From a candidate division WOR-3 bacterium (GTDB taxonomy: Bacteria; Hydrothermota; Hydrothermia; B15-G9; WFZT01), in NCBI GenBank assembly GCA_027053075.1, contig JALUEE010000047.1:64001-128000 (forward strand): a stretch of DNA of 64,000 nt, given 5' to 3'. The notes below the pieces were generated by a model that worked only from the letters and a program-made list of their open reading frames with translations, did no database searches and was not told where the DNA came from. Both the position numbers and the translations under genes were made by a program. Positions 12,519 through 63,993 of this stretch are shown here, piece by piece (positions within the stretch are counted from its first letter, which is position 1; each line of letters starts with the position of its first letter).

Positions 12519-12547
12519 ATTTTAAATTCCCACCCTTTATTTTTCAA
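12519..12547 (-). promoter_or_regulatory. sigma70-type promoter TTGAAA-17-TAAAAT for the hydratase/carboxylase/mutS/mre run
   Basis: Read on the minus strand; -10 lies 8 nt before the ATG at 12510. Confidence 0.7.
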
Positions 12548-12555
12548 CCAAGGCA

Positions 12556-12897
12556 GAGCATGCCTGAAAATGTTACCACGCAGAGTAAAAAACTTCCCAA
12601 AGTCAAGTGTACATGATTTTTCTACTCGGCGAAAGGATCCGCTTGAACAACAATAACACTCCCTCCCTTCCTTTGGAAGGGAGGGTTGGGGTGGAATGGG
12701 AAAATAAGGTTCCAAACATTTTCAGAATTTTCGCTGTTTTAAATATGGGAAGACGTAAATCCCCATTCTCCCCTGGCCCCTCCTTCCTCAGAGGAAGGAG
12801 GGGGAAAATTCCGTAATTAGTCCACGACAGGGATTGTGAGTAGATACTAAGGGGGACAACGTTGTTACCAAAGTCCAGTTTTTCTCGAAACAGGCTT
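12556..12897. mobile_element. Composite/degenerate MITE with two internal hairpins; a second element end starts at 12907
   Basis: Ends GAGCATGCCTGAAAA / CGAAACAGGCTT; flanked by ACCAAGGCA (12547-55) and TCCAAGGCA (12898-906); hairpins at 12661-85 and 12777-803. Confidence 0.65.
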
Positions 12898-13036
12898 TCC
12901 AAGGCAGAGCATGCCATAAATTGTGCTTTCCGTCTTATGGTTTGAATAGAGTTATATTTTGGACGGAACATTTTTCGAAAGGTAAAGCTTACGTTTTATT
13001 ATTGAAGGTTTTGGGCATAAATGCTACAATATAACC

Positions 13037-15640
13037 GTGCTTATTTTCAAAATTTTAGCGTATATCTTCATCACCCAGCAGCCAGGAGCAATAGAGGGGC
13101 ACGTTTACGATGCAGTAAGCGGTCAGGGATTACCATATGCAAACGTCATAATCGAAGGCACAAAATTAGGTGCCGCCACCGATGTTAATGGATTCTACAC
13201 CATCATTAATGTTCCTCCCGGTAAATATCGGGTAAAAGCCTCCATTCTTGGCTACAAAGAAAAGACCGTTGAGGTAACACTGGGTCCTGGTGAAATCAAA
13301 AAGGTTGATTTTTATCTCCCCGAAGCTATTGTTCGGCTAAAAAAAGAGGTCGTGGTGGTTGGCAAAAAGCCTTTGATAGAGAAGGAGGTCTCATCAACCA
13401 AGACTATCATTGAAAGGAAAGACCTCGAGGCCATGACTGTGGAAAATGTGAGAGAAGTTCTACAGAAGCAGGCTGGCGTTAGTGGACTCGGCACAGACAT
13501 TCACATTCGTGGTTCACGAAGCAACGAGATGACAATGTATGTTGATGGAGTGCCCATAAAAGACCCACTATCGGGAAACGCTTTTGGCCTGTACCTTCCC
13601 ACAAGGTTTCTGAAGAGCTACGAGGTTATTTTTGGTGGTATAAGTGCCGAGTATGGAAACGTCACAGCAGGTGTCATCCGTGCTGAAATTAGAGAGGGCA
13701 CGAGCAGATTTCATTTTGGCGTATCCCACAAAAGGGACAACTTTGGATTTTTAAACTATTTTGGTTACGATGAGTATGGTTTCTACTTTGAGGGACCAGT
13801 AAGGCTTAAAAAAATCCGAAATATCAGATATTTTGCCTCTTTTAACTCCTCTTTTTCAAACACATATCTCCCCCACACCCATGATCTTTACAGCAGTGTG
13901 TATGGCACAGATAAACTTTCACCAAAGGAAGAAAATAACCTCGCCGGGGTCATAAAAGTTACCTGGAAACCGCGGGAGAATTTCAAGCTCTTTTACAATT
14001 TTACAAAGTCAGTGGAAATAAATCAGGGATATTTTTATTCTCTCGCTGATTATCCTTTTGCTCATGGATTCCCCACGAAATACATGTATTACCTTGACCA
14101 CTATCCAGTTTTCACCCGCGATGCCAATGAGTCAGTCCTCGGTGTTCACTACGTACCCAATCTGAGAAACATCATTGACATGCGTATAGCGAGATTCTTC
14201 ACCAATTTCCACCTTGACGTGCAGGGGAAAAAGTGGAACAAATACGTGGCTCTGGGTGATTTTGACCCGCCTTATGGCTATTATGACCACGGTGATGCAC
14301 CCTATTGGCATGACCACTATGCCGAATCCTATGTTCTGAGACTCGATTTTACCCGCCAGCAGACACCTGTATGGCGGATGAAAACAGGATTTTTAATGAA
14401 CTATTCCAATGTTCAGTGGATCGATATTCAGTATCCCTGGCTTGCTGGACCCTCTGGTCTGGGTTTGAACTACGATATTTACAAGGCCCACACGACAAGG
14501 GGCGGGATTTATATTCAAAACAATATCCATTTTGCGGGTATGATAGCTGCGCTGGGGATGAGGCTCGACTTCTGGGTTCCCGGTAATTACATTGAGAAAG
14601 GCGTCAAAAAGGCCCTTTCCAGAATTGATATTCATCCCACAGTCAAGGCTCAGTATGAAAGTTATCTCTCATCCATGAAACTTCCGTTCACGCATTATCA
14701 TTTTAAGGCTCATCTAAACCCGAGGATCGGAGTTTCCTTCCCTGTCACCGAGAGAACAAAATTCCACTTTTCCTACACCCATTCATCGAAGATTCCGGAT
14801 TTCAAATACGTCTATTCCAAGCTTGGAAGGAGAGCTACCTCGACTTACACCCTTGTGGGTAATCCCAATCTCAAGCCGACTGTTACGGTACAGTATGAAC
14901 TCGGACTCGAGCACCTTTTGACTGAAAGGGTAAAGTTCAGTTCTGTGGCCTATTACAAAGACATTTTCAACTACCCCACTGCTGTGCGGGTACCCGGTAT
15001 TCCACCAAATCCAGACTTCTGGATGTATCTCAACTCGGATTACGCACGTGCTTTTGGACTTGAGAATGGAGTTCGTGGAGACATCACAGACCACATCTCT
15101 GCATCTGTAACTTTGACTCTTTCACAGGCCACAGGAAAGGCCTCCACCTCTGAGGATGTCTACTGGCGTAGAGGCGAGGAAAGTCTCAAGGAGTGGCACC
15201 TTAAGTGGTCACGACCATTTAAATTATTCGCAAATATAACTTACCGGACACATCGAACTCCGGTGACTTTGTGGAGGATAAGGATTCCGAGTAACTTCAT
15301 GTTTTCTATCTCCTGGTCTCTCCAGTCAGGTGTTAGATACACACCGGTGGATAGCCTTGGAAACAGAGGTAGTTTTAATTCTAAACTTGGTCCCATGTGG
15401 AATAGAGTTGACATAAAAATTCGTAAATATTTCAGGACGCGCGCCGGCAGATTTAAAATTGAACTCGAGGGCAAGAATATCTTTAATTCGAAACTGGTTC
15501 GTTACGTAAATCCGCTAACAGGAAGAGCTTATGAGCCAGGTGATCCCATACCACGCGGGTTCAAGGAGATTGACCTCAACACACCCGCAAGGTTTATGGC
15601 ACCGAGAGAGATTAAATTGGGGGTATCTTACGAATGGTGA
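13037..15640 (+). CDS. TonB-dependent receptor with N-terminal carboxypeptidase-regulatory-like domain
   Basis: GAATDVNGFYTIINVPPG; plug HIRGSR..YVDGVP; GNPNLKP; C-terminal beta-signal GVSYEW. Confidence 0.92.
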   Translation: MLIFKILAYIFITQQPGAIEGHVYDAVSGQGLPYANVIIEGTKLGAATDVNGFYTIINVPPGKYRVKASILGYKEKTVEVTLGPGEIKKVDFYLPEAIVRLKKEVVVVGKKPLIEKEVSSTKTIIERKDLEAMTVENVREVLQKQAGVSGLGTDIHIRGSRSNEMTMYVDGVPIKDPLSGNAFGLYLPTRFLKSYEVIFGGISAEYGNVTAGVIRAEIREGTSRFHFGVSHKRDNFGFLNYFGYDEYGFYFEGPVRLKKIRNIRYFASFNSSFSNTYLPHTHDLYSSVYGTDKLSPKEENNLAGVIKVTWKPRENFKLFYNFTKSVEINQGYFYSLADYPFAHGFPTKYMYYLDHYPVFTRDANESVLGVHYVPNLRNIIDMRIARFFTNFHLDVQGKKWNKYVALGDFDPPYGYYDHGDAPYWHDHYAESYVLRLDFTRQQTPVWRMKTGFLMNYSNVQWIDIQYPWLAGPSGLGLNYDIYKAHTTRGGIYIQNNIHFAGMIAALGMRLDFWVPGNYIEKGVKKALSRIDIHPTVKAQYESYLSSMKLPFTHYHFKAHLNPRIGVSFPVTERTKFHFSYTHSSKIPDFKYVYSKLGRRATSTYTLVGNPNLKPTVTVQYELGLEHLLTERVKFSSVAYYKDIFNYPTAVRVPGIPPNPDFWMYLNSDYARAFGLENGVRGDITDHISASVTLTLSQATGKASTSEDVYWRRGEESLKEWHLKWSRPFKLFANITYRTHRTPVTLWRIRIPSNFMFSISWSLQSGVRYTPVDSLGNRGSFNSKLGPMWNRVDIKIRKYFRTRAGRFKIELEGKNIFNSKLVRYVNPLTGRAYEPGDPIPRGFKEIDLNTPARFMAPREIKLGVSYEW

Positions 15641-16578
15641 AAAAATTGTTTTTAATCCTTATACTCGCATCTGGCCTTATGGCTGATGGTATATTTGAAA
15701 GTCTTGGGGGACAAAAAGTTGGAACGACCTCTATGGTTTTCCTGAAGATAGGAATCGGCACAAGAGCTACTGGTATGGGAGGAACCTTCGTGGGTGTGGC
15801 CGATGACCCATCCACGTTTTTCTGGAATCCAGGTGGTGTACCAAATCTTGGAAATTCCGCCTACGTTTCCTTTACGGCTTTACCCGACAACGTAAACATG
15901 ACATTTATCTCGGCCTCCAGGAATCTTGGCCTCTGGGGATACGCAGGAGTATTTTTAATTGGGCTTGATGCCGGATACATGGAGGAGACCGACGAGTACC
16001 ATCCCTTTGGGACTGGCCGGTACTTTCACTTCGGTGACTATCTTCTTGGTGTGAACTACTCTAAAAAAGTCACGGATAGATTTTCTTTTGGGATGAATGT
16101 AAAAGGTTTCATGGAGGAGTTTTATGGTCTGAAATCCTATGGATTCGCAATGGATATGGGGACTTTTTATCTGGTGGGTTACAGGGATATAAGGATTGGG
16201 GTGTCCCTTTCAAATCTCGGGCCGGATATCAAACCCGGTGGAGACGGAGAAAATTACCTGAGTTTCCCTGTCCCGATCGTGTATAGAATGGGGGTATCTG
16301 GATTGATTTTAAACAATTTGAGGGGCTCTTTTGAGCTCGACAAGCCTTCTGATAATGTTGAAACCCTGAAAATGGGAGCAGAATTTATTGTGAATAAGAA
16401 CGTCTCTCTTTACAGTGGAATGAAGCTTAATGCCCGCCAACCTCAGGGAAAGTTACCAATTGCCGGACTTTCGTTTGGCTTTGATGCACATCTTAAAATG
16501 TTTAAACTGGGCTATTCTGCCTCAGATATGGGAGTTCTTGGAGTAGTTCACAGATTTTCACTGGAAGTTCAGAAATGA
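15634..16578 (+). CDS. PorV/PorQ-family outer-membrane protein
   Basis: FLKIGIGTRATGMGG..ADDPSTFFWNPGG..HRFSL. Confidence 0.88.
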   Translation: MVKKLFLILILASGLMADGIFESLGGQKVGTTSMVFLKIGIGTRATGMGGTFVGVADDPSTFFWNPGGVPNLGNSAYVSFTALPDNVNMTFISASRNLGLWGYAGVFLIGLDAGYMEETDEYHPFGTGRYFHFGDYLLGVNYSKKVTDRFSFGMNVKGFMEEFYGLKSYGFAMDMGTFYLVGYRDIRIGVSLSNLGPDIKPGGDGENYLSFPVPIVYRMGVSGLILNNLRGSFELDKPSDNVETLKMGAEFIVNKNVSLYSGMKLNARQPQGKLPIAGLSFGFDAHLKMFKLGYSASDMGVLGVVHRFSLEVQK

Positions 16579-17483
16579 AAAAATTCTTGCTTATAGGCAT
16601 AATCATATTGCTTGCGGGATGCGGTAAAAAGTATCCAATACCACCGGAGCCAACGACTGGTGGGCTTCCGCCTCTTGGAAGTTATGTGCAGGATGTTAAC
16701 TGGCCGGGAAGCAGTATAAATTTCCATGATATAAAGGATGTAATCGTAGGAAAAGACGGATTTATCTATGTCTTAGATGGAGAGACTGCTTACAGACTCT
16801 TAATCACGGGAGAGGTGGTTGGTCAGATAAATATTCCTCCCCGAATGGAGGCAATGGCGCAGGATGACCAGCGTAATTTATATTTCGCGGGGATGGATTC
16901 AAGTGTCTACAGATATTCGAGAAGCGGGGTGTGGGATACAATAAGAGTGCCAGATTCACTTGCGAATATTACCGGCATAACTGTTGGTGAGCAAATAGTT
17001 GTTTCGGACACTTTAAAAGACCTCGTTATCGCATTTTTGCCTGATTCTGCAATTGATACAGTGGCGGTGTTTGGAAGCGGAGCTCTGTTTGTGGATAATC
17101 CACTCGATCTATGGCTTGACCCTATGGATAGGGTTCTTACTGTCTCTTACAACCACAACTGGGTTGAGGCCTTCCCTCTGGATAGCTTGCAGCCATTTTT
17201 ACACCTTGGAGGAGACAATCCAGAAGGGGATACCACAGAGGGGACATTCCGGATGCCTGTTGATGTTGTATCCGATGATTCGTCCTACATTTACGTGGCA
17301 GATAGTTTCAGGGTCCAGAAGTTTGATTTTGCGGGAAATTTTGTAACTGATGTTAGATTTGAAGATTTGAGACCCATCTCTGTGGCTGTTACAGATGATG
17401 GTAAATATCTAATTGTGGCATTCAGGGACCAGCTATACAAATTCGAGCGCTTCGACGGCCTTCAGCAGGGTGGAGGAAGCTAA
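16575..17483 (+). CDS. NHL-repeat beta-propeller lipoprotein
   Basis: Lipobox LLAGC; FRMPVDVVSDDSSYIYVADS..RVQKFD. Confidence 0.8.
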   Translation: MKKFLLIGIIILLAGCGKKYPIPPEPTTGGLPPLGSYVQDVNWPGSSINFHDIKDVIVGKDGFIYVLDGETAYRLLITGEVVGQINIPPRMEAMAQDDQRNLYFAGMDSSVYRYSRSGVWDTIRVPDSLANITGITVGEQIVVSDTLKDLVIAFLPDSAIDTVAVFGSGALFVDNPLDLWLDPMDRVLTVSYNHNWVEAFPLDSLQPFLHLGGDNPEGDTTEGTFRMPVDVVSDDSSYIYVADSFRVQKFDFAGNFVTDVRFEDLRPISVAVTDDGKYLIVAFRDQLYKFERFDGLQQGGGS

Positions 17484-17645
17484 AGACAATAAACCCAAAT
17501 TGGGCTCCACAAAATCAAAACTATCACACAATGTGTCAAGATTAAACAATAGCACTGCCCGGTACTTACAAATCAAGACACCTTCAAGCTTGTTTAAAAA
17601 ATCTTAAATTTTAGTAAACTCCAATGGCCCTTTTTAATCTCACTT

Positions 17646-17769
17646 GAGCCTGTTCGAAAAATTACAAAACCTTTGAATTTTAATGAAAAATTTGCCCCCC
17701 ACCTTATTCCTCCCCCCACGCACTTTGTGCGTGGGGGGAGGATAGGAGGGGGAATTTTCGAACGAGCTC
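17646..17769. mobile_element. Intact 124-bp MITE
   Basis: TIRs GAGCCTGTTCGAAAA / TTTTCGAACGAGCTC; GC-rich internal hairpin; 9-bp TSD ATCTCACTT / ACCTCACTT. Confidence 0.85.
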
Positions 17770-17946
17770 ACCTCACTTATAACCGAAGGTCAGTTGGTAA
17801 CTTCCATTCCTTCCTCAGGGGAAGGTGGGGATCTCAATACCTGTTATATCCTAATTTTTAACGAATCCATCAATTTTCTTCTCACTCTATTAACCTCTGC
17901 GAAAGGATAACCAGGGTGTGATATTTTCAGATAGGCTTTTACCCCC

Positions 17947-17991
17947 TTGACAATTTTCGAGATATAAACGAATATTTGAATAGACAAATAT
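17947..17991 (+). promoter_or_regulatory. Promoter (TTGACA -35) with overlapping 7-6-7 inverted repeat, candidate ArsR operator
   Basis: ATATTTG-AATAGA-CAAATAT at 17972-17991, upstream of the SPW and ArsR genes. Confidence 0.55.
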
Positions 17992-18020
17992 ATCATGAAC
18001 CTTAAAAAGGAGGTGTAATT

Positions 18021-18344
18021 ATGTGGCAAGATTGGGTCAATGTCATACTTGGTATCTGGCTTATTATTGCAGGGTTTATACCCTCAATCACAGCCAGTAA
18101 GGGCGCATCTCTCTGGAACGACCTGATTGTGGGAATCATCGTCCTGATCCTTGCGGCGTGGGTTGCGAAATCCAGATGGCCTGAGTGGATCAATGTAATC
18201 CTTGGTATCTGGTTAATTATTGCGGCCTTCATCCCTTCCATAGTGGCAAGCAAATCCGGGAACATGTGGAATGACATCATTGTCGGTATTCTGATCGTGA
18301 TCTTCGGAATCTGGGCAGCACTGATGAAACCGTCGCAGGCGTAA
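18021..18344 (+). CDS. SPW-repeat integral membrane protein
   Basis: Two 51-aa repeats (W[V/I]NVILGIWLIIA..WND.IVGI); strong SD AAGGAGGT. Confidence 0.85.
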   Translation: MWQDWVNVILGIWLIIAGFIPSITASKGASLWNDLIVGIIVLILAAWVAKSRWPEWINVILGIWLIIAAFIPSIVASKSGNMWNDIIVGILIVIFGIWAALMKPSQA

Positions 18345-18354
18345 TAGAAAACCG

Positions 18355-18381: not shown

Positions 18382-18396
18382 TCAAAAATCTCAAAA

Positions 18397-18797: not shown

Positions 18798-18808
18798 AAA
18801 TTTATTCT

Positions 18809-19313: not shown

Positions 19314-19342
19314 ACTATAATCCCACCTCTGTTAAAAGTCAA
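19314..19342 (-). promoter_or_regulatory. slyD promoter TTGACT-17-TATAGT
   Basis: Near-consensus boxes on the minus strand upstream of the SD. Confidence 0.75.
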
Positions 19343-19350
19343 ATCACAGA

Positions 19351-19472
19351 GAGCTTGTTCGAAAAAATTAAAAAGTTATTAGATTTATAAAATGAATTTC
19401 CCCACCTTTCTCCTTTCCCCACGCACGAAATGCGTGGGGGAAGTTGGGAAGGGGGAATTTCCAAACACTCTC
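19351..19472. mobile_element. MITE copy (122 bp)
   Basis: GAGCTTGTTCGAAAA ... TTTCCAAACACTCTC; internal hairpin; TSD AATCACAGA / TATCACAGA. Confidence 0.8.
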
Positions 19473-19847
19473 TATCACAGAGCATCCTGCACAAAAATTA
19501 GGTCTTCATATAATCTTGATTTGTGGGGCGAGAAATATAAATTTTCCCGGCTACCAAAACACTACCTGGGATACAGAGAAATGACATTTCGATTGAAAAA
19601 TTTAAAATAAAAGCCTCCGCCGGATTTTACCTGCAAATTGGGAGAAAGGGACCTATGAATTTTTGATGAAAATTTAAATGAAGCCCCTCTCCTGTATCCT
19701 CTCCCCGCAAACAAATTTATGCGGGGAGAGGATCATTTTGCGTTTGAAAATATTCGAACAGGTTAAGGCCAAACTAACACAGAGAGAAGAACACATCCCT
19801 CTTGGAAATCAAAAATCTAAATTTCCTACCAAGTCCAAGTATCTTTA

Positions 19848-20188
19848 ATTCCCCCCTCCTATCCCTGACGTCACCCACGAATTTCTGGATAATAACACCT
19901 TATCCCTTGCCACGTCTTCAAAAAGGTGTACTACGCTCAATATTTGAACACTCTCTTTATACGGTATAAACGAATATATCCTTTCGGTAAAATTGCTGAT
20001 TTAGTGCGAAAAATCGAATTTCTCGCCCAGATTGCATTGTATAAATATACATGGCAAGCAAAAACATGGGTGATGTCAGGTCAGCCTCCTATCCTCCCCC
20101 CACGCACTTCGTGCGTGGGGGGAGGAATAAGGTGGGGGGCAAATTTTTCATTGAAAATCAAAGGTTTTGAAATTTTTCGAACAGGCTC
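19848..20188. mobile_element. MITE copy lacking one TIR, interrupted by a second element
   Basis: 20085-20188 is near the reverse complement of the 17646 copy and 19848-64 is its continuation; exact TSD GTATCTTTA at 19839-47 and 20189-97. Confidence 0.8.
19865..20084. mobile_element. Nested 220-bp non-autonomous element of a second family
   Basis: Ends CTGACGTCACCCA / TGGGTGATGTCAG(GTCAG); 10-bp TSD CCTCCTATCC at 19855-64 and 20085-94. Confidence 0.75.
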
Positions 20189-20233
20189 GTATCTTTATGG
20201 TCTTTTGCGTCGGATGGAATTAAAATTTTGGGT

Positions 20234-28461: not shown

Positions 28462-28490
28462 AATATAAATTCGCGAATTTATAATGTCAA
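28462..28490 (-). promoter_or_regulatory. Promoter TTGACA-17-TATATT
   Basis: Consensus -35 on the minus strand upstream of the ATG at 28442. Confidence 0.8.
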
Positions 28491-28499
28491 GCAACGATT

Positions 28500-28612
28500 G
28501 AGCTTATTCCCCCACCTTTTCCTCCCCCACTCACAAAGTGAGTGGGGGAGGAAAAGGTGGGGGCAAATTTTTCATTGAAAATCAAAGGTTTTGAAATTTT
28601 TCGGACAGGCTC
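28500..28612. mobile_element. MITE copy (113 bp)
   Basis: GAGCTTATTC ... TTTTCGGACAGGCTC; exact 10-bp TSD AGCAACGATT at 28490-99 and 28613-22; right half nearly identical to 20132-20188. Confidence 0.88.
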
Positions 28613-28844
28613 AGCAACGATTGGGGGTGAATGGAAATTGTTATCCACTTACTGGTCTCCTTCACCCACTTTGTGGGTATAGGACAAAACTTTCGAGAGG
28701 AATTTCCTTCAAAAGCCGACAATTTTTCTCAGCAATGAGTTAGAACCGAATGTGTCGAAAGGAAATACACATACCGTTTCCAAAAAGAGCAGTTCATCCA
28801 TAATCATGTTGCTCTGACGGGGAATTTGGATAAAAATTAAATGC

Positions 28845-35097: not shown

Positions 35098-35197
35098 GAG
35101 ACTGTTCGAGAATTTTTATAGATTTACGAGAGGAATACCCCCCACCTCATCCTCCCCCCGCATAAATTTGATTGCGGGGGGAGGCAAGGAGATGGGT
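35098..35197. repeat. Degenerate MITE copy (one end plus hairpin)
   Basis: GAGACTGTTCGAGAA then CCTCCCCCCGCA...TGCGGGGGGAGG; no second TIR or TSD seen. Confidence 0.6.
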
Positions 35198-35323
35198 TAC
35201 TTCTGCCAAAATCGATCTTCCTTCCACAAATTTTATCGACAATAAGAGATCATAAAAGCAAATTTTTGGAAAATTCCAGACCTTCAAAATCTCGCATGGG
35301 GGCAATATTATTTTCAATCCTCT

Positions 35324-38964: not shown

Positions 38965-39027
38965 AAGTGTGTTTGAAAAATTTCAATTTTAAGGGAAATT
39001 TAAGGGGGACATTTTCAAACGACGTTC
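38965..39027. mobile_element. Internally deleted 63-bp MITE
   Basis: AAGTGTGTTTGAAAA / TTTTCAAACGACGTTC; TSD TTTGATATGC (38955-64) / TTTGATATGT (39028-37). Confidence 0.7.
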
Positions 39028-39036
39028 TTTGATATG

Positions 39037-39093
39037 TTGAAAAACTACACTTTTGTTACTATAATATGTAAAAATGTGAGAAAAATACACATT
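39037..39093 (+). promoter_or_regulatory. Promoter TTGAAA-17-TATAAT with candidate operator repeats
   Basis: AAAANTACACWTT at 38884, 39041 and 39081; inverted repeat AATGTG-N9-CACATT at 39073-93. Confidence 0.7.
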
Positions 39094-47116: not shown

Positions 47117-47283
47117 TGCCTCCACTGATAGAATACGCCCATTCTAATAAAAATACAGTGTTTTTTCAAGAAGCAATCAGGTCCGCCGGTGGAACTTCCC
47201 AAAACGAATGGAGATTTTTTCCATCTTCTCAGATTTGACAGTAAGAGAAAGTTGCGAGAAAATATTTCAAAAACAAAGGAGAT

Positions 47284-48846: not shown

Positions 48847-51263
48847 CCTTTTCTCTGGAATAATTTACGAAGGCTCCAGCGACTGTGCCCGTTGGTCCGG
48901 TGGTAATACGAATAGTAGTATCTTTTATACTCCCTGTAGCGGTAACCTGAGGCATTAATTGAGAAGAAGTTTAAAACTATTCCAAGGACCTTTGCATCAA
49001 CTCTTTCAAATAATTCGATAGACCTTTTAAGCATTTTTGTGCTTGTCCATCTGTGTCTTGCCACAAGGATCACGCCATCCACAAGGGTACTGAGCTCTAT
49101 TGAATCCGTAACGGGCATAAGTGGGGCACTGTCTATCACCACATACTCATACCTCCCCCTCATCTCCTCTATCACCCTCCTCATCCTCACACTTCCCAAT
49201 AACTCCGATGGATTCGGCGGTATATGCCCACTCACCAAAACATCCAACCCCTCCACCTCACTCCCCCTTATCACTACCCCCAGCTCCGCCTCTCCTACTA
49301 TCACCTCCGTTAACCCAGGCTCCCTCTCCATACCAAATATCTTATGCACCATCGGCCTCCTCAAATCCGCATCCACCAACAACACCCTCTTCCCCATCTG
49401 CGCCATCACTATCCCTAAATTCGACGCCACCGTAGTCTTACCCTCCCCCGCTCCACTACTCGTCACCAATATCACCCTCACCTCCTCCCCAGCTCCACTA
49501 AACCTTATGTTCGTCCTTATCCCCTTGAACGCCTCCGCCGTCGGCGACATCGCATCATACTGCGTCACCAACCTCTCCCTTACATCCTTACCTCCCATCT
49601 CCGGCACTGACCCTATCACCGGCACCCCCAGTACACTCTCCACCTCCTCCGGACCCCTCACACTCGTATCCATGTACTCCTCCACAAACGCCAAACCTAA
49701 CCCCAACATCAATCCCAGTATTATCCCCAATATTATGTTCAACCTCTTCCTCGGCTTCACAGGACTCACCGGCGGATACGCAGGGTCTATTATCTTCGCA
49801 TCCGACGTCTGCTTCGCCGCAGCTATCCTCGCCTCCTCCAACTTCGATAACAACATCGAATACACCGCCCTACCAGCATCCACCTTCCTCTGTAACTCCG
49901 CTAACCTCACCTCATGCCCCGGCAATCCCTTTAACTTCCTGTCCTCCTCCTCTATCAACCTGTTCAACGCCTTTAACTTCCCCTCCAACGCACTTATCTG
50001 CGTCTGCGACTCTATTATCCCCCCCACTATCTTCTGAAATATCGGGTCCGCTACACTCGGCCCCTCCTTCACTATCTTCCCTATCGCCTCCCTCAACTGC
50101 TCCCTCGTCGCCTCTATCTGCCTCTCCACCTGCACCACATCCGGATGTGACTCCGTATACTCCTCCAATAACTTCGCCCTCTCCAACTCCAACTCCGTTA
50201 ACTTACTCTTCAACTCCTGTATGTATGGATTCGAACTCAACTCCGGTAATGACGCTATCCTCTTGTACTTCCCATACTCCCCCCTGCTCGAACTCGCCTG
50301 CCTCCTCAAATTCTCCAGCTGTATCTTCAACGACGCTATCTGGGTCTCTACATCGCTCTTCTCCGCCTCAAGAGAGCTTATGTTAGATATCAAATTCTTC
50401 GCGGTCTCATCCAGGAGGAATATACCTGTTTTTTCCTTGAAATCCTTGAGTTCATTCTCGGATTTTCTTAGCTCGGCCTCGACCTTCTTCAGCTGTTCTT
50501 CGATAAACTCTTTGGTTTTCAGAGCGTCCTCTTTCCCCAGATACAACGTGTATCTCACGTACTCCTCCGCCACCGCATTGGCAATCCTGGCAGATGAATC
50601 AGGCGAGTGCGTTCTTACCTTAATTTCAGCAAGATTGGTATTACCATACTGTTTGACTTTGATCTTCGATGCAAAGGATTTTGCCATAGAGTAAGGATGT
50701 TTCACTTTGAATTTAAATCCATTCCCGAGACCAGCTCCAAGAAGCCTAAATGAGAAATCCTTTGTTTTAAAAACTTTCCCAACCTCACCCTCGCCAATGA
50801 GTTCCCCGGAAGCCTTAAAAACTTTAAATCTCTGGTTATCTTTGAATTCTACCCTATAAACACCTGTAGCGGGACTGAGAGACGAGGAAGTGGAATCAAC
50901 GGCCACTCCTCTGGGAAACTTTAAATTCATTCCCAGCCTCGCAAGCACACGACTATTTATGCTCCTCGATTTTATGATCTTTATCTGGGTAGCAATTGGG
51001 TCATAGATGTAAGCTGGTTCTGGAGAAACTTCGGGAACAACGGTTACAAAAGTTTTTGAGATCGAAAGAGAGACTATAGAGGTGGCCTCATAAGTGGGCT
51101 TAGAGAATTCGTTAAAAAGAATTACACCAGTAATTACCGCCAGAAGGGTGAGGAAAATTGTTTTCCATCTACGGACAAGAACATCTAAAATATCACTGAG
51201 GGTTATCTCATCATAAAGGTCTCCATCAAGGGAAATATTACTTTTTCCGTTTCCGGAATACAT
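48843..51263 (-). CDS. Wzc-type polysaccharide co-polymerase / tyrosine autokinase (copy 2)
   Basis: Two TMs, coiled coil, GEGKTT, VDADLRRP, IDSAP, Tyr-rich tail. Confidence 0.93.
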   Translation of the reverse strand: MYSGNGKSNISLDGDLYDEITLSDILDVLVRRWKTIFLTLLAVITGVILFNEFSKPTYEATSIVSLSISKTFVTVVPEVSPEPAYIYDPIATQIKIIKSRSINSRVLARLGMNLKFPRGVAVDSTSSSLSPATGVYRVEFKDNQRFKVFKASGELIGEGEVGKVFKTKDFSFRLLGAGLGNGFKFKVKHPYSMAKSFASKIKVKQYGNTNLAEIKVRTHSPDSSARIANAVAEEYVRYTLYLGKEDALKTKEFIEEQLKKVEAELRKSENELKDFKEKTGIFLLDETAKNLISNISSLEAEKSDVETQIASLKIQLENLRRQASSSRGEYGKYKRIASLPELSSNPYIQELKSKLTELELERAKLLEEYTESHPDVVQVERQIEATREQLREAIGKIVKEGPSVADPIFQKIVGGIIESQTQISALEGKLKALNRLIEEEDRKLKGLPGHEVRLAELQRKVDAGRAVYSMLLSKLEEARIAAAKQTSDAKIIDPAYPPVSPVKPRKRLNIILGIILGLMLGLGLAFVEEYMDTSVRGPEEVESVLGVPVIGSVPEMGGKDVRERLVTQYDAMSPTAEAFKGIRTNIRFSGAGEEVRVILVTSSGAGEGKTTVASNLGIVMAQMGKRVLLVDADLRRPMVHKIFGMEREPGLTEVIVGEAELGVVIRGSEVEGLDVLVSGHIPPNPSELLGSVRMRRVIEEMRGRYEYVVIDSAPLMPVTDSIELSTLVDGVILVARHRWTSTKMLKRSIELFERVDAKVLGIVLNFFSINASGYRYREYKRYYYSYYHRTNGHSRWSLRKLFQRKG
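49105..50584. repeat. 1480-bp direct repeat, copy A (partner 51533-53012)
   Basis: Ungapped match at offset 2428. Confidence 0.97.
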
Positions 51264-53697
51264 TCAAAAGTTTCTCCCAAAGTGAGGACTTTTTCTTGTG
51301 ACCATCACCGTAATAGTAGTGGTAATAGTGATAGTAACGGTATTTCCCGTACTTTCCATATTTGTAATAATAGTACCTCCTCCTGAGGTTTATACCGTTG
51401 TAAACCACGCCAATCAATTTTCCACCGAACCTCCTGAGTTGCTCAACAGCTCTTTTTAGGACTTCTCTATCAGTTATTCCATCTCTAACAACCATGATAA
51501 CACCATCCACAACCGGACTTAGTTCCATGGTGTCCGTAACGGGCATAAGGGGGGCACTGTCTATCACCACATACTCATACCTCCCCCTCATCTCCTCTAT
51601 CACCCTCCTCATCCTCACACTTCCCAATAACTCCGATGGATTCGGCGGTATATGCCCACTCACCAAAACATCCAACCCCTCCACCTCACTCCCCCTTATC
51701 ACTACCCCCAGCTCCGCCTCTCCTACTATCACCTCCGTTAACCCAGGCTCCCTCTCCATACCAAATATCTTATGCACCATCGGCCTCCTCAAATCCGCAT
51801 CCACCAACAACACCCTCTTCCCCATCTGCGCCATCACTATCCCTAAATTCGACGCCACCGTAGTCTTACCCTCCCCCGCTCCACTACTCGTCACCAATAT
51901 CACCCTCACCTCCTCCCCAGCTCCACTAAACCTTATGTTCGTCCTTATCCCCTTGAACGCCTCCGCAGTCGGTGACATCGCATCATACTGCGTCACCAAC
52001 CTCTCCCTCACATCCTTACCTCCCATCTCTGGCACCGACCCTATCACCGGCACACCAAGTACACTCTCTACCTCCTCCGGTCCCCTCACACTCGTATCCA
52101 TGTACTCCTCCACAAACGCCAAACCTAACCCCAACATCAATCCCAATATTATCCCCAATATTATGTTCAACCTCTTCCTCGGCTTCACCGGACTCACCGG
52201 CGGATACGCAGGGTCTATTATCTTCGCATCCGACGTCTGCTTCGCCGCCGCTATCCTCGCTTCCTCTAATTTTGATAACAACATCGAATACACCGCTCTT
52301 CCCGCATCCACCTTTCTCTGTAATTCCGCTAACCTCACCTCATGTCCCGGCAACCCCTTTAACTTCCTGTCCTCCTCCTCTATTAACCTGTTTAATGCCT
52401 TCAACTTCCCCTCCAACGCACTTATCTGCGTCTGCGACTCTATTATACCCCCCACTATCTTCTGAAATATCGGGTCCGATACACTCGGCCCCTCCTTCAC
52501 TATCTTCCCTATCGCCTCCCTCAACTGCTCCCTCGTCGCCTCTATCTGCCTCTCCACCTGCACCACATCCGGATGTGACTCCGTATACTCCTCCAATAAC
52601 TTCGCCCTCTCCAACTCCAACTCCGTTAACTTACTCTTCAACTCCTGTATGTATGGATTCGAACTCAACTCCGGTAATGACGCTATCCTCTTGTACTTCC
52701 CATACTCCCCCCTGCTCGAACTCGCCTGCCTCCTCAAATTCTCCAGCTGTATCTTCAACGACGCTATCTGGGTCTCTACATCGCTCTTCTCCGCCTCAAG
52801 AGAGCTTATGTTAGATATCAAATTCTTCGCGGTCTCATCCAGGAGGAATATACCTGTTTTTTCCTTGAAATCCTTGAGTTCATTCTCGGATTTTCTTAGC
52901 TCAGCCTCGACCTTTTTCAGCTGTTCTTCGATAAACTCTTTGGTCTTCAGTGCATCCTCTTTCCCCAGATACAACGTGTACCTCACGTACTCCTCCGCCA
53001 CAGCATTGGCAAGGTCAGCGGCCTTTTTAGGTGATGTTGAGCGCATCTTTATTATAGCGAGATCCGTCTTTCCCTTCTGCATCACCTTTATTCGACGGCT
53101 GAATCCCTGGGCGACTCTGTAGGGTAAAAGGACTGAAAAAGTAAATGAATCGGGATGCTTCTTCAAAAATTTCTTTGAAAAGCCAACGATTCTAAATCTA
53201 ATTCCATCAGTTGAAAAAACCTCACCTATCTTGCCGGTTCCTATTTTTTTATTGTCCGAGGAATAAACTACTAACTGGTCATTACCTATAAATTTTACCC
53301 TGTACTCCCCAGTCTCAGGCGCAATTGCCGACCATGTGGAATCTACCTTGACTCCTTCAGGAAATCTCAGGTTTATCCCATACTTGGCCACCACATTTCT
53401 TGCTATGGTCTTGGATTTTATGATTTCGATCTGACTTTGCACAGGGTCCACTGAGCGTGCGGTAGGTGATATTTCTGGAAGCACTGACACAGATGTCTCT
53501 TTAATTGCCAGCTTAACCATAGAAGAGGCTTCGTAAACCGGTGTGGAAAGGTAAGATATGACCACCGCGATAACGGTTACAAAAACTGTAACCACAACGA
53601 TTGTTTTTAGCCTTCTCAGGATAACATCTATGATATCCCCAAGACTTATTTCTTCTTCCTGAAATCCGTTATTCTGCACCTCATTATTTAATTCCAT
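51238..53697 (-). CDS. Wzc-type polysaccharide co-polymerase / tyrosine autokinase (copy 1)
   Basis: Same motifs as copy 2; tail YYYYKYGKYGKYRYYHYYHYYY. Confidence 0.93.
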   Translation of the reverse strand: MELNNEVQNNGFQEEEISLGDIIDVILRRLKTIVVVTVFVTVIAVVISYLSTPVYEASSMVKLAIKETSVSVLPEISPTARSVDPVQSQIEIIKSKTIARNVVAKYGINLRFPEGVKVDSTWSAIAPETGEYRVKFIGNDQLVVYSSDNKKIGTGKIGEVFSTDGIRFRIVGFSKKFLKKHPDSFTFSVLLPYRVAQGFSRRIKVMQKGKTDLAIIKMRSTSPKKAADLANAVAEEYVRYTLYLGKEDALKTKEFIEEQLKKVEAELRKSENELKDFKEKTGIFLLDETAKNLISNISSLEAEKSDVETQIASLKIQLENLRRQASSSRGEYGKYKRIASLPELSSNPYIQELKSKLTELELERAKLLEEYTESHPDVVQVERQIEATREQLREAIGKIVKEGPSVSDPIFQKIVGGIIESQTQISALEGKLKALNRLIEEEDRKLKGLPGHEVRLAELQRKVDAGRAVYSMLLSKLEEARIAAAKQTSDAKIIDPAYPPVSPVKPRKRLNIILGIILGLMLGLGLAFVEEYMDTSVRGPEEVESVLGVPVIGSVPEMGGKDVRERLVTQYDAMSPTAEAFKGIRTNIRFSGAGEEVRVILVTSSGAGEGKTTVASNLGIVMAQMGKRVLLVDADLRRPMVHKIFGMEREPGLTEVIVGEAELGVVIRGSEVEGLDVLVSGHIPPNPSELLGSVRMRRVIEEMRGRYEYVVIDSAPLMPVTDTMELSPVVDGVIMVVRDGITDREVLKRAVEQLRRFGGKLIGVVYNGINLRRRYYYYKYGKYGKYRYYHYYHYYYGDGHKKKSSLWEKLLNVFRKRKK
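51533..53012. repeat. 1480-bp direct repeat, copy B
   Basis: Ungapped match to 49105-50584. Confidence 0.97.
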
Positions 53698-59713: not shown

Positions 59714-62700
59714 TCTTCTTCAAGGAGGGAGCCAAGGAGTTCATCAACGACCTCTCTCATATCCGCCTGGCGTTTTTCATACCTGACAGTAGAATTCAGA
59801 TACATAAGAAATTCGTCCGTCCTTTCTTTAAAGGCCTTATCCGCAATATTAAGCACTTTAGTATCATATTTTCCTGATTGCATCATCTCTCTGAGTAAAT
59901 CTTCCAGATCCCCAGCAGTTCTCTGGGGCTTCTTAATTATGTTGTTCTCAATCTCGTCTGCCACTCCAATTATCCTGGCACCAAGAGATATCTGGCCTCC
60001 AGCGAGCTTTTGGGGAAATCCTGAGCCATCTATTCTTTCGTGGTGTTCTTTAACCCATCTTGGTATACTACCCCCACAGGGCAAGCCAAGGTTTTTCAGC
60101 AAATCAAATCCGAAAATCGGGTGTTTTTCATAGTACTCCCAATCCAAAGAATCCTTTTCCATTGTTTCAGGGGGTCTTATAAGGAAAGATGAGGGTATCT
60201 TTATCTTACCTATATCATGCAGTATCGCACCTGTTACAAGACACAATCTATCTGAACTCTGGATAAAATCATCTTCGGAAAATCCATCTCTCTCCATCAC
60301 CTCCAGCATCTTTTTAACAATAATTGCCACATTAATACTGTGTCTGGCAACAATCGGTGATTTCTCAGCAATTATATTGAGCAACATTGTAATAAGCCCG
60401 ATAATTGCCCTATTTCTCGAAAGCTGTTTCTTATAAATTTCAGACACATCGTGTCCAATAACAATGTACTCATGTGAATCCCCTACTTTAATTTTCTTAA
60501 CCACAAGCTTCAGCCAAGTCTCTTCGCCTCTCAAATCTACAGTTACAATATCCGTCCCCTCTTCCTCTTCTTCCAGATCAAACAGGGCCTCAATACTTTC
60601 TTTATCCTTCTCCTTAACAGCTTCGTGCAGGATATTTATAACGTCTTCACCCTCAAGCTCTTTCCGCTGAAATAAATTTTTTGCCTGGTTATTTGCAATA
60701 ATTATCCTGTGGTCCTCATTAGTAAGAATAAAAATGTCTTTTGAGCGTTTGTAAAATTCTTCAAAAAGCCTTTCAACTTCACTGGCAGCAAGTGCTTTAT
60801 GAAAAGTTTCCACATGCTCAGCAACTGTCTTGGCCAGATGTTGAAATACATTCTCAACTTCTTCCTTTATAGGATCATCTTCAAGAACAGAAATAGCCTG
60901 AACAAATCTATGAAATTCACCTTCCCCCTTAGCGAGCATTACTATGACGCCGATATTCTCTCCTGTTTCCACAAGGGAGTGAATAGGGATTCTCAACGCC
61001 CACTCAAATTTCTTTTGTCTCAGAGCTTCAGCTTCCTGTATCTCATTAATATTGATAAGAAGAACATCATTTGAAGAAGCTCCAAAACCATTGAGAATCT
61101 CAACAAATTTACATAGTCCATCCACAGATTCAAGATTACTGCTTATCTGACAATAACGATGATCCGTTTCAGGATCAGAGGGTACAGCAATCATACCATC
61201 TGAGAAATTTAGACGATCAACGAGTTTCTCGAGAACGTAATCATAAAACCTGTATGTAGATTCCCAAGGATGTTTATCCCAATGAGTCCCAATGGTCTCT
61301 GCTAACTCCACACTCGCCTCAAGTATTTTCCTTAAGTAAAAGTTTCTCAGTTCATTCAGTTTTTCCTTCGTCCTATCCTCGAAAATCCAGACATAAACTG
61401 ATATATTAAATATGTTTACGGGAATACCTGAGATAATCAGGTACTTTTCCTCTCCGATTGGGAGTCTAATCCACTTATCCAATCTTGCCGGACGGTTGTT
61501 TCTGATATACTCAAAGACTTTATCCACAACTTTCTGGTTGTCCCTCAAGCCCGGGATAATTTCTAAATGAGCATCCTGGACCTCGTCAATCGGGACGTTA
61601 AAAATCTTCCCAAACTTCTCATTAACATAAAGAATTTCCCCCTCACGGTCTACAGCGGCCACTCCAGCATCACCATGTGACAGGCTAAGCTCGTCTGCAA
61701 GGTTCTCAATATATTTCTCAGGAGACAGAATTGAAAGTTCTATCAGGTCTCTCAAACTTTTTGCAAAAAATTTGATCATATACCTTTCCTGAACGTCCAA
61801 AATATCAGGTCTGTCTGCACATAGGACACCATAAGTTGTTTCCCTTAGACCTTTGAGAAACTCTGTTATACTATATAGAGTTTTCGCTGTTTCTATATCG
61901 TCAAAGTTTCTGTAGAGACTTAAAAAATTCTCGGCTTTGTAACCGTCAATACATTTCTTCTTTTCCTTATCGCTGGCTTTAAAGCCGTAGATAATTCTGC
62001 TCTTATAATCGCCGTTTACCGTTCTATGAACAAAAATAAATGGGATTTCGTCTTCAAACTTCCAATGGCGAGCGATATAAAAAGGCACAAAAAGCAAACT
62101 CCTTAGATTTAAAATCCCGGAGAATTTTTTCAAAATTTCCGTAAGAGGGACCAAAAACTCACCTTTAGACTGAGCCCCAAATGACTGGAGCTCCTCTATT
62201 AGATTGTTAAGCTTTTCAAAAAGCTCCTCCGCTTCAGATGTAAAAGGCTCATGGAAAACGATAATAAAACCATCTCTCTTATTGTCTGCCCGAATCCTCG
62301 GAATAATCGAGACTGATCTTTGCAAAACAGTACCGTCTGGCAGGGCAATCTTTATCCCCCTGGTCGTCATGTACCCACCACTAAAAAGCTCTTGACTATC
62401 AAAGCCTGGAGCAATTTCTCTCAAAAATTCATGGACGTTTAGATTTAAAATCTCTTCAAGAGTGTATTTATTTTGCAGAAAATTCAAAAGCAAGTCGTTG
62501 GCATAAACTATTTTCTCTTCATCATCGACTATTAAAATCCCCAATCCCATAGATTCATAATCCTTAAGATCCTCTCTCTGCCTGTTTTTAATTCTCTCTC
62601 GCGTAAGCTTCACCATTTTTTCCAGAATTCGAGATTTCACCTTTTCCATCACATCTATGTTAAACTCAGGAACTACGTAAACATCAGGGATGTCATGTAT

Positions 62701-62934
62701 GGGAAGACCATCCTTGCTCACCACCACAACAACAAAATTGGGCTCCTCTCTGACACTCAGGCTATTTATTTTATCCAGCTTTTCGAGAAATTTATCCTTA
62801 TCGAGAACAATAATTCCTGCTTTGTTTTTATCTATGAACGTATCAAAGTCGGCTGGTCGTATATGGGGAAAAACTTCTTTGATAATTCTTTCGTACTCTT
62901 CCTTTTTTGAATTGGTCTCAACGAGAAATCTCAA
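59710..62934 (-). CDS. Multi-PAS sensor with HD-GYP phosphodiesterase domain
   Basis: Three PAS starts (IVYAN, ILYVN, IIIAN); HSINVA, LHDIGK, HHERIDGSGFP, IIGVAD. Confidence 0.88.
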   Translation of the reverse strand: MRFLVETNSKKEEYERIIKEVFPHIRPADFDTFIDKNKAGIIVLDKDKFLEKLDKINSLSVREEPNFVVVVVSKDGLPIHDIPDVYVVPEFNIDVMEKVKSRILEKMVKLTRERIKNRQREDLKDYESMGLGILIVDDEEKIVYANDLLLNFLQNKYTLEEILNLNVHEFLREIAPGFDSQELFSGGYMTTRGIKIALPDGTVLQRSVSIIPRIRADNKRDGFIIVFHEPFTSEAEELFEKLNNLIEELQSFGAQSKGEFLVPLTEILKKFSGILNLRSLLFVPFYIARHWKFEDEIPFIFVHRTVNGDYKSRIIYGFKASDKEKKKCIDGYKAENFLSLYRNFDDIETAKTLYSITEFLKGLRETTYGVLCADRPDILDVQERYMIKFFAKSLRDLIELSILSPEKYIENLADELSLSHGDAGVAAVDREGEILYVNEKFGKIFNVPIDEVQDAHLEIIPGLRDNQKVVDKVFEYIRNNRPARLDKWIRLPIGEEKYLIISGIPVNIFNISVYVWIFEDRTKEKLNELRNFYLRKILEASVELAETIGTHWDKHPWESTYRFYDYVLEKLVDRLNFSDGMIAVPSDPETDHRYCQISSNLESVDGLCKFVEILNGFGASSNDVLLININEIQEAEALRQKKFEWALRIPIHSLVETGENIGVIVMLAKGEGEFHRFVQAISVLEDDPIKEEVENVFQHLAKTVAEHVETFHKALAASEVERLFEEFYKRSKDIFILTNEDHRIIIANNQAKNLFQRKELEGEDVINILHEAVKEKDKESIEALFDLEEEEEGTDIVTVDLRGEETWLKLVVKKIKVGDSHEYIVIGHDVSEIYKKQLSRNRAIIGLITMLLNIIAEKSPIVARHSINVAIIVKKMLEVMERDGFSEDDFIQSSDRLCLVTGAILHDIGKIKIPSSFLIRPPETMEKDSLDWEYYEKHPIFGFDLLKNLGLPCGGSIPRWVKEHHERIDGSGFPQKLAGGQISLGARIIGVADEIENNIIKKPQRTAGDLEDLLREMMQSGKYDTKVLNIADKAFKERTDEFLMYLNSTVRYEKRQADMREVVDELLGSLLEEE

Positions 62935-62962
62935 ACCCTTTCAGCTCCCAGCTTTTTAAAAC

Positions 62963-62991
62963 AATTTAAAACTTTTTTACTCCCACGTCAA
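62963..62991 (-). promoter_or_regulatory. Promoter TTGACG-17-TAAATT
   Basis: Minus strand, upstream of the HD-GYP gene. Confidence 0.7.
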
Positions 62992-63000
62992 GCAAATGTC

Positions 63001-63123
63001 GAGCATGTTCGAAAATGTTGCCCCATCCTATTCTCCCCCATGCACAAAATTGGATCGAGTAGGAGATAGATGATGGGAATTCCTTTTAATTTCTAAATAA
63101 ATTGAAATTTTTCGAACACACCC
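63001..63123. mobile_element. Degenerate MITE copy (123 bp)
   Basis: GAGCATGTTCGAAAA / TTTTCGAACACACCC; TSD AGCAAATGTC / AGCAATTGTT. Confidence 0.78.
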
Positions 63124-63137
63124 AGCAATTGTTCCCA

Positions 63138-63800
63138 CTAAAATTCGCGCGTGAGTTTAACAAATCCCCTCAAAAGCCTTTCTGAAGATTCGGAACGCCA
63201 CCTCTCAGGGTGCCATTGGACTGCAATAACTTTGAATTCAGGATTTTCAATTCCCTCAATAATTTCGTCTTTAAGAGAATACGCTGAAACAGTTAAGCTT
63301 TCACCCGGTTTTTTAACACTCTCATGGTGGTGACTGTTTACCTCGATAATCTCCTCGCCAATGATACTATAGAGCATGGTATTCTTCACAATCCGGACCT
63401 TGTGCACCTTGTCCTTGCCCTCTTTGTCAGTGTGATCACCGGTAATAGCGCCAAATTCGTCTATATCCTGCCAGAGAGAACCGCGGAAAAATACATTGAT
63501 CAACTGCATCCCTCTGCAGATACCGAGAACGGGTATCTTCTCCTTTAAGGCTTCATCCAGGGCAAAGAACTCGAAATCATCCCGGGCATCAGAGACCTCT
63601 TCTGTCCTCAGGTTTTCCTCTCCGTATCTCCTCGCGTTGAGGTCACCACCACCTGAGAGTATCAGGGCATCGATGGATACACCAAGGTCCCTCTTTTCAC
63701 TCAGAGGGACAGGCTCGGCCACTTCTTCTACCCACTTAAAATAATTCTTATACTTTCCTGTTACCTCACGACTATCCGGGACTGTAATACCTATTCGCAT
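63138..63800 (-). CDS. Gamma-glutamyl-GABA hydrolase family glutamine amidotransferase (peptidase C26)
   Basis: LSGGGD, GICRGMQ, VNSHHH, QWHPE. Confidence 0.92.
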   Translation of the reverse strand: MRIGITVPDSREVTGKYKNYFKWVEEVAEPVPLSEKRDLGVSIDALILSGGGDLNARRYGEENLRTEEVSDARDDFEFFALDEALKEKIPVLGICRGMQLINVFFRGSLWQDIDEFGAITGDHTDKEGKDKVHKVRIVKNTMLYSIIGEEIIEVNSHHHESVKKPGESLTVSAYSLKDEIIEGIENPEFKVIAVQWHPERWRSESSERLLRGFVKLTREF

Positions 63801-63917
63801 GATGCATTAATATAATTTTCCTGGTATGTCATTTCCACCCCTTCCGGGTTTGCCTCGGAATACTGCCTTATTCCCCGCGCATTTTTACGTGAGAAAATTA
63901 CTCTCAAAAATCGGATA

Positions 63918-63931
63918 ATTCGAACAGGCCC
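63918..63931. repeat. MITE terminal remnant
   Basis: ATTCGAACAGGCCC resembles the family right end. Confidence 0.55.
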
Positions 63932-63939
63932 AAGTTTTG

Positions 63940-63993
63940 TTGTCCATTTAAACGGACAGGTTTATAATCGTGAACCAAATTCAGCAGGGAGGT
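63940..63993 (+). promoter_or_regulatory. Promoter TTGTCC-17-TATAAT and SD (GGAGGT) for a gene starting past the window end
   Basis: Boxes at 63940-45 and 63963-68. Confidence 0.75.

Follow-up and report, generated by a model that had tools for sequence, protein, structure and literature searches.

A stretch of 64,000 bp from a hydrothermal-vent bacterium of candidate division WOR-3 (GenBank assembly GCA_027053075.1, contig JALUEE010000047.1, positions 64,001 to 128,000; hereafter the window) carries copies of a miniature inverted-repeat transposable element (MITE) that are inserted in a fixed register against the -35 hexamers of predicted promoters. The window corresponds to G000:C47:64001-128000, G000 being the 2.44-Mb assembly that holds it (95% complete), and the same register is found throughout G000, in the congener G004 (94% identity to G000 at the single locus compared) and in relatives of the element. 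The original prediction, made from the window alone, had proposed a promoter-targeted MITE family that is moved by a Mutator-like transposase guided by promoter-bound RNA polymerase. The observation is real, general and precise: insertion at the promoter edge was right, the transposase family was wrong, and guidance by the polymerase is unproven. The MITEs are derivatives of a 1,061-bp insertion sequence (IS) of the IS5 family, and on balance its transposase probably itself reads the TTGAC hexamer beside the cut site.

Twenty-three full-length copies of the MITE in G000 align cleanly, and a profile built from them (nhmmer) gave 361 matches in G000 that reduce to 243 non-overlapping loci. The pattern of the terminal inverted repeat (TIR), searched in G000 with up to two mismatches, gave 312 ends (64 exact, 85 with one and 163 with two mismatches); pairing of these ends yielded 54 elements bounded by a duplication of 9 bp or, less often, 10 bp. 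Most elements are about 124 bp long; further size classes lie at about 300 bp, about 350-375 bp and 470 bp, and the short copies that bear TIRs range from 63 to 128 bp. When the flanks are read outward from the element, TTGA starts at position 9 in 49 of the 312 ends and at position 10 in another 25, with 0-7 occurrences at each of the other positions from 1 to 60; control positions average about two TTGA each, against 74 for positions 9 and 10 together. The longer motif TTGAC behaves in the same way (31 ends at position 9, 16 at position 10, 0-3 elsewhere in 1-60), and the reverse-complement control, TCAA, shows no peak (0 at position 9, 3 at position 10, 0-5 elsewhere). Among the 54 paired elements, TTGA in the exact register stands on one side in 33 and on both sides in none, and ten shifted registers gave 0-6 TTGA each. 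The duplicated 9-mers yielded no consensus. The target sequences are as unrelated to each other as the original prediction had stated, and the sharp genome-wide distance peak that it had called for is present at outward positions 9-10. In G004, TTGA stands at positions 9, 10 and 11 in 21, 7 and 6 of 82 ends, respectively. No orientation bias was seen among 30 elements of the 124-bp class in G000 (12 versus 8, with 10 unassigned). A palindromic target was also considered and rejected: a T as first base of the opposite hexamer was counted by eye in 13 of 35 one-sided cases, which is near background, and five of these 13 are the end of a neighbouring element.

Candidate -10 boxes were scored as at least four of six matches, with A2 and T6 required, at 16-18 bp from the hexamer. 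Such a box is present at 55 of the 74 ends with TTGA in register, compared, among non-coding background sites, with 11% of 6,086 TTGA, 23% of 1,019 TTGAC and 35% of 412 TTGACA sites. When the 74 flanks are aligned on TTGA, the next base is C in 47 and the following one A in 42, and a TATAAT-like box appears beyond a 17-bp spacer (T in 60, A in 54 and the last T in 50 of the 74), which is the full sigma-70 promoter profile (TTGACA, 17 bp, TATAAT) that had been predicted for these boxes. By our own crude gene map, 52 of the 74 occupied TTGA sites lie upstream of a co-oriented gene; the direction of the next long open reading frame (ORF) discriminated weakly (66% versus 53% in the control), and this map, which is based on codon usage, was used instead. 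G000 encodes a predicted primary sigma factor (TIGR02393, 370 bits versus a cut-off of 354), and the helix-turn-helix of its sigma A region 4.2 looks canonical when set against the E. coli sequence. From consensus, spacing and position, we infer that the flanking boxes are sigma-70 promoters.

The comparison of G004 with G000 indicates that the family has been mobile. About 100 TIR matches were found in G004 and 3-8 in each of four other genomes of the genus. The 41 loci of G004 around TIR matches that were compared with G000 gave 19 paired elements; for these, the corresponding site in G000 is empty in seven cases, occupied in both genomes in four, and not classifiable in eight. At the seven empty sites, the flanks meet in G000 and overlap by one copy of the 9-10-mer; the hexamers in register are TTGATA, TTCAAA, TTGAAA, TTGACA (three sites) and TTGACT, and a reasonable -10 was judged to be present at five of the seven. 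One of the seven lies in the window, on the plus strand at 47227-47235, and reads TCTCAGATT followed by TGACAG (TTGACA at 47235-47240), and G004 carries a 124-bp MITE exactly there, between two copies of TCTCAGATT. Each of the seven empty sites carries a single copy of the target; the opposite result, which the original prediction had named as a refutation, was not seen. Contigs assembled from four DNA runs break at repeats, and none of them bridges an empty MITE site in the window. One promoter has apparently been hit repeatedly: at G000:C18 (4800-5500), a tandem pair of elements stands ahead of TTGAAA-TAATAT-ATG, and one 9-mer (AACTGACGT / AACTGCTAT / AACTGACAT) occurs three times, between the two elements and on either side of them, which points to two successive insertions at one -35. 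The repeats are a real MITE family, as predicted, with TIRs, duplications of 9-10 bp, empty sites and a transposase-bearing element with the same ends.

This last element, at G004:C168:4933-5993, is an IS of 1,061 bp with TIRs identical to those of the MITE, a perfect 10-bp duplication and one ORF of 309 amino acids, and it is the transposase gene between family-like ends for which a search had been proposed. It adjoins a TTGACA that precedes a TATTAT-like box, and G000 is empty at this site. The predicted 309-residue protein matches PF01609 (DDE_Tnp_1; E 5e-11, 43.1 bits versus a cut-off of 23); its best NCBIfam match is NF033579 (IS5_2; E 7e-30), at 104.4 bits and below the curated cut-off of 140, and a match to PF13737 is weak (26.3 bits versus a cut-off of 28.1). 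In an alignment of 12 relatives, D112, D188 and E246 are invariant, as is the spacing Y239-R242-E246-K253 (Y-2-R-3-E-6-K), the signature that defines the IS5 family. Scans against Pfam and NCBIfam gave IS5 and IS4 models as the best matches and no Mutator, IS256 or ISLre2 model. By its domain matches and its DDE (aspartate, aspartate, glutamate) residues, the predicted driver is a transposase of the IS5 family, ISAae1/ISTth7 clade, and the Mutator-like driver (IS256, ISLre2 or TnGBS) that had been proposed was not borne out. Among named transposases, the protein is closest to that of ISAae1 of Aquifex (38-40% identity) and, at a greater distance, to that of ISTth7 of Thermus (about 27%), and relatives are labelled 'IS5-like element ISAae1 / ISTth7 family transposase' in the sequence sources. 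The clade is rare: an indexed search gave 13 relatives, and a profile search of 1.84 billion representatives gave 847, 256 and 68 matches at E values of up to 1e-3, 1e-10 and 1e-30, respectively.

No intact transposase was found in G000, only two decayed copies at C33:173063-173564 (502 bp) and C75:558-1230 (673 bp), with stop codons and internal deletions; the C33 copy still adjoins TTGACA. A search of the genome contigs with a transposase profile gave four loci, three of them cut by contig ends. Since G000 has only decayed copies and its assembly contains no helper for the MITEs, these would now depend on a helper from outside in order to move.

The register is a habit of the whole clade. 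In a metagenome-assembled genome of the Thermotogaceae, an element end is followed by nine bases and then by TTGACA-17-TATAAT, a predicted promoter that precedes a putative tRNA gene (read by eye). In the one copy of ISAae1 on the Aquifex plasmid ece1, the last T of the duplication (AACCAAGGT) starts TTTACA, with TATACT 16 bp further on. A TIR variant, GAGG(C/G)TGTTCGAAAA, found in other genomes of the genus and order, has TTGAC-type hexamers (TTGAAA at one locus) at outward positions 10-12 at 12 of 20 loci; the offset of one or two bases probably reflects a different true terminus. On metagenome contigs from vents and hot springs, with transposases that are 31-52% identical, TTGAC(A/T) occupies position 9 at one or both ends of all six elements whose two ends are visible, and five of 12 loci with a single end are in register, near the expected half. 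An IS of about 1.1 kb at G009:C162:4369-6520, which has similar ends (GAGGCTGTTCGAAAA) and a transposase that is 31% identical, shows no TTGAC at either flank and is possibly a member of the clade without this preference.

For ISTth7 on six Thermus megaplasmids, TTG(A/C)C starts from the last base of the 9-bp duplication in 11 of 14 non-duplicate copies; the chance rate of this register is about 0.3% per element if the genome has about 69% G+C. Two strains share one occupied target (CCTTCCCGT|TGACC), with ISTth7 in opposite orientations. By eye, TAnnnT is present at 17-18 bp in five of the 11 sites in register, and the other six have no recognisable -10. The plasmid of a laboratory derivative of HB27 carries an extra ISTth7 copy (NZ_CP144686.1, 23634-24662) inside the argonaute coding sequence, at CGTGGGCTT|TGACG, where TAnnnT is absent at 16-18 bp; in the reference plasmid (NC_005838.1, 22000-26000) this site is empty, and PMC6352166 mentions an ago::ISTth7 knockout.

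We favour, as the somewhat more probable explanation, that the transposase recognises TTGAC directly. As the register suggests, one strand transfer would take place between T1 and T2 of TTGAC, and the second would lie 9-10 bp upstream. This would leave the core promoter and the proximal 9-10 bp in place, and the element end would take over from about -45 outward. The duplication preserves the 9-10 bp upstream of the -35, and therefore the predicted replacement of the UP-element region stands for the part beyond about -45 and fails for the bases next to the -35. Copies would survive mainly at hexamers that form part of a real promoter, with insertions in genes, operons and leaders being lost, and promoter DNA may also be the better substrate. 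The ISTth7 copy at T|TGACG in a gene, with no -10, favours direct reading. The motif also adjoins the scissile bond, as is usual for transposases that recognise their target themselves and not for tethered ones.

Several points weigh against direct reading. Intergenic TTGAC sites are occupied at 27 of 212 positions with a -10, versus 11 of 447 without (odds ratio 5.8, p 7e-7). Occupancy is 23/179 with a -10 versus 9/200 without for intergenic sites upstream of a gene (Fisher p 0.005), 4/33 versus 2/247 for other intergenic sites (Fisher p 0.002), and 6/219 versus 3/4,512 for coding sites. Direct reading explains this effect of the -10 only through selection or substrate accessibility; it would need insertions in leaders, operon spacers and small genes to have been lost, or promoter DNA to be easier to reach. 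Moreover, at the 238 ends that lack TTGA, 14 good -10 boxes were counted at outward positions 32-34, versus about 2.5 expected (p 4e-7). A one-sided target is unusual for a symmetric transpososome, and the argonaute case is a single event in a relative of about 27% identity and may have been positively selected. The codon-usage gene map of G000 (2,154 genes, 89% coding), which underlies these occupancies, comes from a crude caller, and the metagenome contig flanks form no matching duplications by eye, probably through chimeric assembly of a multi-copy element.

The strongest alternative is that promoter-bound RNA polymerase, or region 4 of sigma A, which reads TTGAC, tethers the transposase and so places the insertion at the upstream edge of the -35; we regard this as a substantial possibility, if not the one to be expected. 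A proper -10 would lengthen the residence of the polymerase and thereby increase insertion, and the rare insertions at a lone TTGAC would reflect transient sigma binding. The occupancy of TTGAC sites with a -10, which is 3-17 times higher and extends to intergenic DNA that is not upstream of a gene, is as tethering predicts, and so is the -10 peak at the right distance for ends that lack TTGA. The hexamers also vary in the manner of natural -35 boxes (C at position 5 in 47 and A at position 6 in 42 of the 74), a one-sided target suits an asymmetric external guide, five of the 11 ISTth7 sites have TAnnnT at 17-18 bp in spite of the GC-rich Thermus background, and PMC3942029 provides precedents for promoter targeting in TnGBS, ISLre2 and ISKra4. 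Against tethering, strand transfer takes place within the footprint of sigma region 4, with no distance at all between the two; the known tethered systems, TnGBS with its 15-17 bp among them, insert some way off from the guide. The ISTth7 copy in the argonaute gene and the six of 11 ISTth7 sites without a recognisable -10 also argue for direct reading by the transposase over tethering.

Loose targeting, for example to AT-rich intergenic DNA, would leave promoter adjacency to selection or exaptation, with the element serving, for instance, as an insulator through its hairpin or as the source of an A/T tract upstream. The strong G/C hairpin, the A/T-rich stretch 10-20 bp inside the element end and the near absence of copies in genes (the 3 of 4,512 coding TTGAC sites without a -10) agree with such a scenario, and we nevertheless consider it very improbable: selection cannot yield a register of a single base without spread, the seven insertions that are polymorphic between G004 and G000 are already in register, the same register recurs in five independent sets of relatives, and the promoter at G000:C18 was hit twice, with the same 9-mer in three copies. 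An immobile structural repeat that resembles REP (repetitive extragenic palindromic) or BoxC sequences and lies near promoters by chance, as the central G/C hairpin of the MITE might suggest, is practically discounted by the TIRs, the duplications and the transposase-bearing element with identical ends, and is refuted by the empty sites.

The nearest functional analogues are TnGBS, ISLre2 and the ISKra4 group, which this family resembles in habit without belonging to them. According to PMC3942029, these have Mutator-like transposases, and their insertions lie 13-17 bp upstream of the -35 boxes of sigma A (TnGBS, 15-17 bp); its authors call promoter insertion unusual among prokaryotic transposases. 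The likenesses are DDE elements whose insertions keep a set distance from sigma-A/sigma-70 promoters on the upstream side, a core promoter that is spared, and near-symmetric inverted repeats that insert in both orientations (here 12 versus 8). The differences lie in the transposase, Mutator-like there and of the IS5 family here, and in the geometry, with the junction 13-17 bp from the -35 there and 8-9 bp here, where the duplication overlaps the first T. The driver here has also spawned a large MITE family.

Within the IS5 family, ISTth7 and ISAae1 resemble the present family in element length (1.0-1.06 kb), in a 9-bp duplication and in the T|TG(A/C)C register, seen in the 11 of 14 ISTth7 copies and in the one ISAae1 copy (there with TTTACA); their TIR sequences differ, and ISTth7 also inserts inside genes. 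IS903 is about 1.06 kb with an ORF of about 307 amino acids, and 9 bp is the duplication length of its subgroup; the present element is similar in size, in its single ORF of 309 amino acids and in its 9-bp duplication, on which the likeness rests, and matches PF13737 weakly. IS903 prefers a loose palindromic target, whereas here the target is a promoter box. MITEAba12 is reportedly an example of a MITE derived from an IS5-family element, and IS5-derived MITEs have ends in common with the parent IS, as was found here. In Table 2 of PMC6352166, of which a part was available, ISTth7 is placed in the ISH1 subgroup of the IS5 family with direct repeats of 8 bp, compared with the 9-bp duplication carried by the ISTth7 copies analysed here and the 9-10 bp of the MITE family; that part of the article does not mention a target motif for ISTth7. 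No report of -35 targeting by an IS5-family element or a MITE was found in the literature searched, which did not extend to subscription journals (e.g. the original ISTth7 paper) or ISfinder.

Among eukaryotic elements, Ty3 lands at the start sites of RNA polymerase III by means of a retrotransposon integrase that transcription factors tether. The fixed place at the promoter edge and the sparing of genes are common to Ty3 and the present family; the enzyme differs, a tethered retrotransposon integrase there and a DDE transposase here.

The window itself contains 13 TIR matches with up to three mismatches, versus 2.47 expected, and none of 100 shuffles reached 13. All nine loci named in the original prediction have the geometry that it described, with the last target base as the first T of the hexamer and a -10 at 17-18 bp. 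The intact 124-bp MITE at 17646-17769 (plus strand; nhmmer 137.5 bits), an insertion that is shared with G004, has the TIRs GAGCCTGTTCGAAAA ... TTTTCGAACGAGCTC, a G/C hairpin at its centre and a target duplication at 17637-17645 / 17770-17778 (8/9 identical); beside it lies a weak candidate promoter on the minus strand (TTAAAA 17632-17637, 18 bp, TAAAAT 17608-17613). The 122-bp MITE at 19351-19472 (plus; duplication 19342-19350 / 19473-19481, 8/9 identical) adjoins a predicted minus-strand promoter (TTGACT 19337-19342, TATAGT 19314-19319), as does the 113-bp MITE at 28500-28612 (minus), which is also present in G004 and has a perfect 10-bp duplication, AGCAACGATT, at 28490-28499 / 28613-28622 (TTGACA 28485-28490, TATATT 28462-28467). 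A third predicted minus-strand promoter (TTGACG 62986-62991, TAAATT 62963-62968) adjoins the 123-bp MITE at 63001-63123 (plus; duplication 62991-63000 / 63124-63133, 8/10 identical). A deletion derivative of 63 bp at 38965-39027 (plus), which has kept both TIRs and has the duplication TTTGATATG(C/T) with its promoter-side copy at 39028-39037, adjoins a predicted plus-strand promoter (TTGAAA 39037-39042, TATAAT 39060-39065).

The remaining copies are degenerate or composite. A terminus with three mismatches, GAGCATGCCTGAAAA, at 12556-12570 (plus; one end defined; target 12547-12555) adjoins a predicted minus-strand promoter (TTGAAA 12542-12547, TAAAAT 12519-12524). A lone degenerate terminus, GGGCCTGTTCGAATT, at 63917-63931 (minus; target 63932-63940), with the element running leftwards, stands beside plus-strand TTGTCC (63940-63945) and TATAAT (63963-63968), and a degenerate, ATATTTTCAGATAGGCTT-like terminus at 17922-17938 (minus; target 17939-17947) stands beside plus-strand TTGACA (17947-17952) with a weak -10. 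For a degenerate copy at 35098-35208 (plus), no promoter-like hexamer was present at the one end inspected. The copy at 19847-20188 (minus; target 20189-20197), with a truncated far TIR, is a composite of the MITE and an unrelated element of about 216-226 bp that is nested beside the hairpin (about 19865-20080); it is 94% identical over 342 columns to a complete 350-bp composite at G000:C29:12345-12694, and ATGGTC occupies its -35 position (20197-20202), followed by TAAAAT (20221-20226). The nested element is non-coding, has CTGACGTCACCCAYG-like inverted ends and recurs at the same point in several MITE copies; its presence beside the hairpin accounts for the 350-bp class, and it is missing from the G004 orthologue of G000:C16:4133-4484.

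Other insertions and repeats were observed along the way. The MITE at G000:C14:7052-8919 contains a 1.7-kb element of the IS110 family inside its central hairpin, with an ORF of 431 amino acids that matches PF01548 and PF02371 (E about 1e-23), and further copies of this IS110-family element adjoin other G/C hairpins, e.g. G000:C98:11473-13289. In the window, the small ORF that closely follows the TTGACA at 17947 contains a 65-nt direct repeat (18024-18088 / 18177-18241, 77% identity) that resembles a duplicated membrane-helix module. A direct repeat of 1.5 kb (49068-50584 / 51496-53012; self-BLAST, at least 85% identity), overlapped by a gap-free 300-nt pair (48969-49268 / 51397-51696, 81% identical), probably represents two paralogous genes in tandem.

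Promoter-targeted transposition in prokaryotes has, in the searchable literature, rested on one superfamily (TnGBS, ISLre2, ISKra4). The IS5 family represents a second, unrelated superfamily with a promoter-edge habit, with a different and tighter geometry and a large MITE progeny, and the two superfamilies seem to have converged on a safe place to land, where genes and core promoters are spared. For uncultured thermophiles, the register provides free promoter annotation, in that the element flanks mark -35 boxes, and a 309-residue transposase with a defined target motif could become a tool for site-directed insertion. Thermus thermophilus with ISTth7 is a tractable host for deciding between direct reading and tethering to the polymerase.

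The family is of a size to be of consequence for the host: at the 27 of 212 intergenic TTGAC sites with a -10 that are occupied in G000, everything upstream of about -45 is replaced, which is where activators and UP elements act. More tentatively still than tethering in bacteria, and against our own expectation, this IS5-family clade might dock on the initiation machinery in general, i.e. on sigma region 4 at the -35 in bacteria and, conditionally, on the complex at the TATA box and the transcription factor B recognition element (BRE) in archaea. If so, it would parallel, in prokaryotes, the promoter homing of Ty3-like elements, with about one in eight consensus-like promoters of G000 carrying an element, and its copies could rewire upstream regulation.

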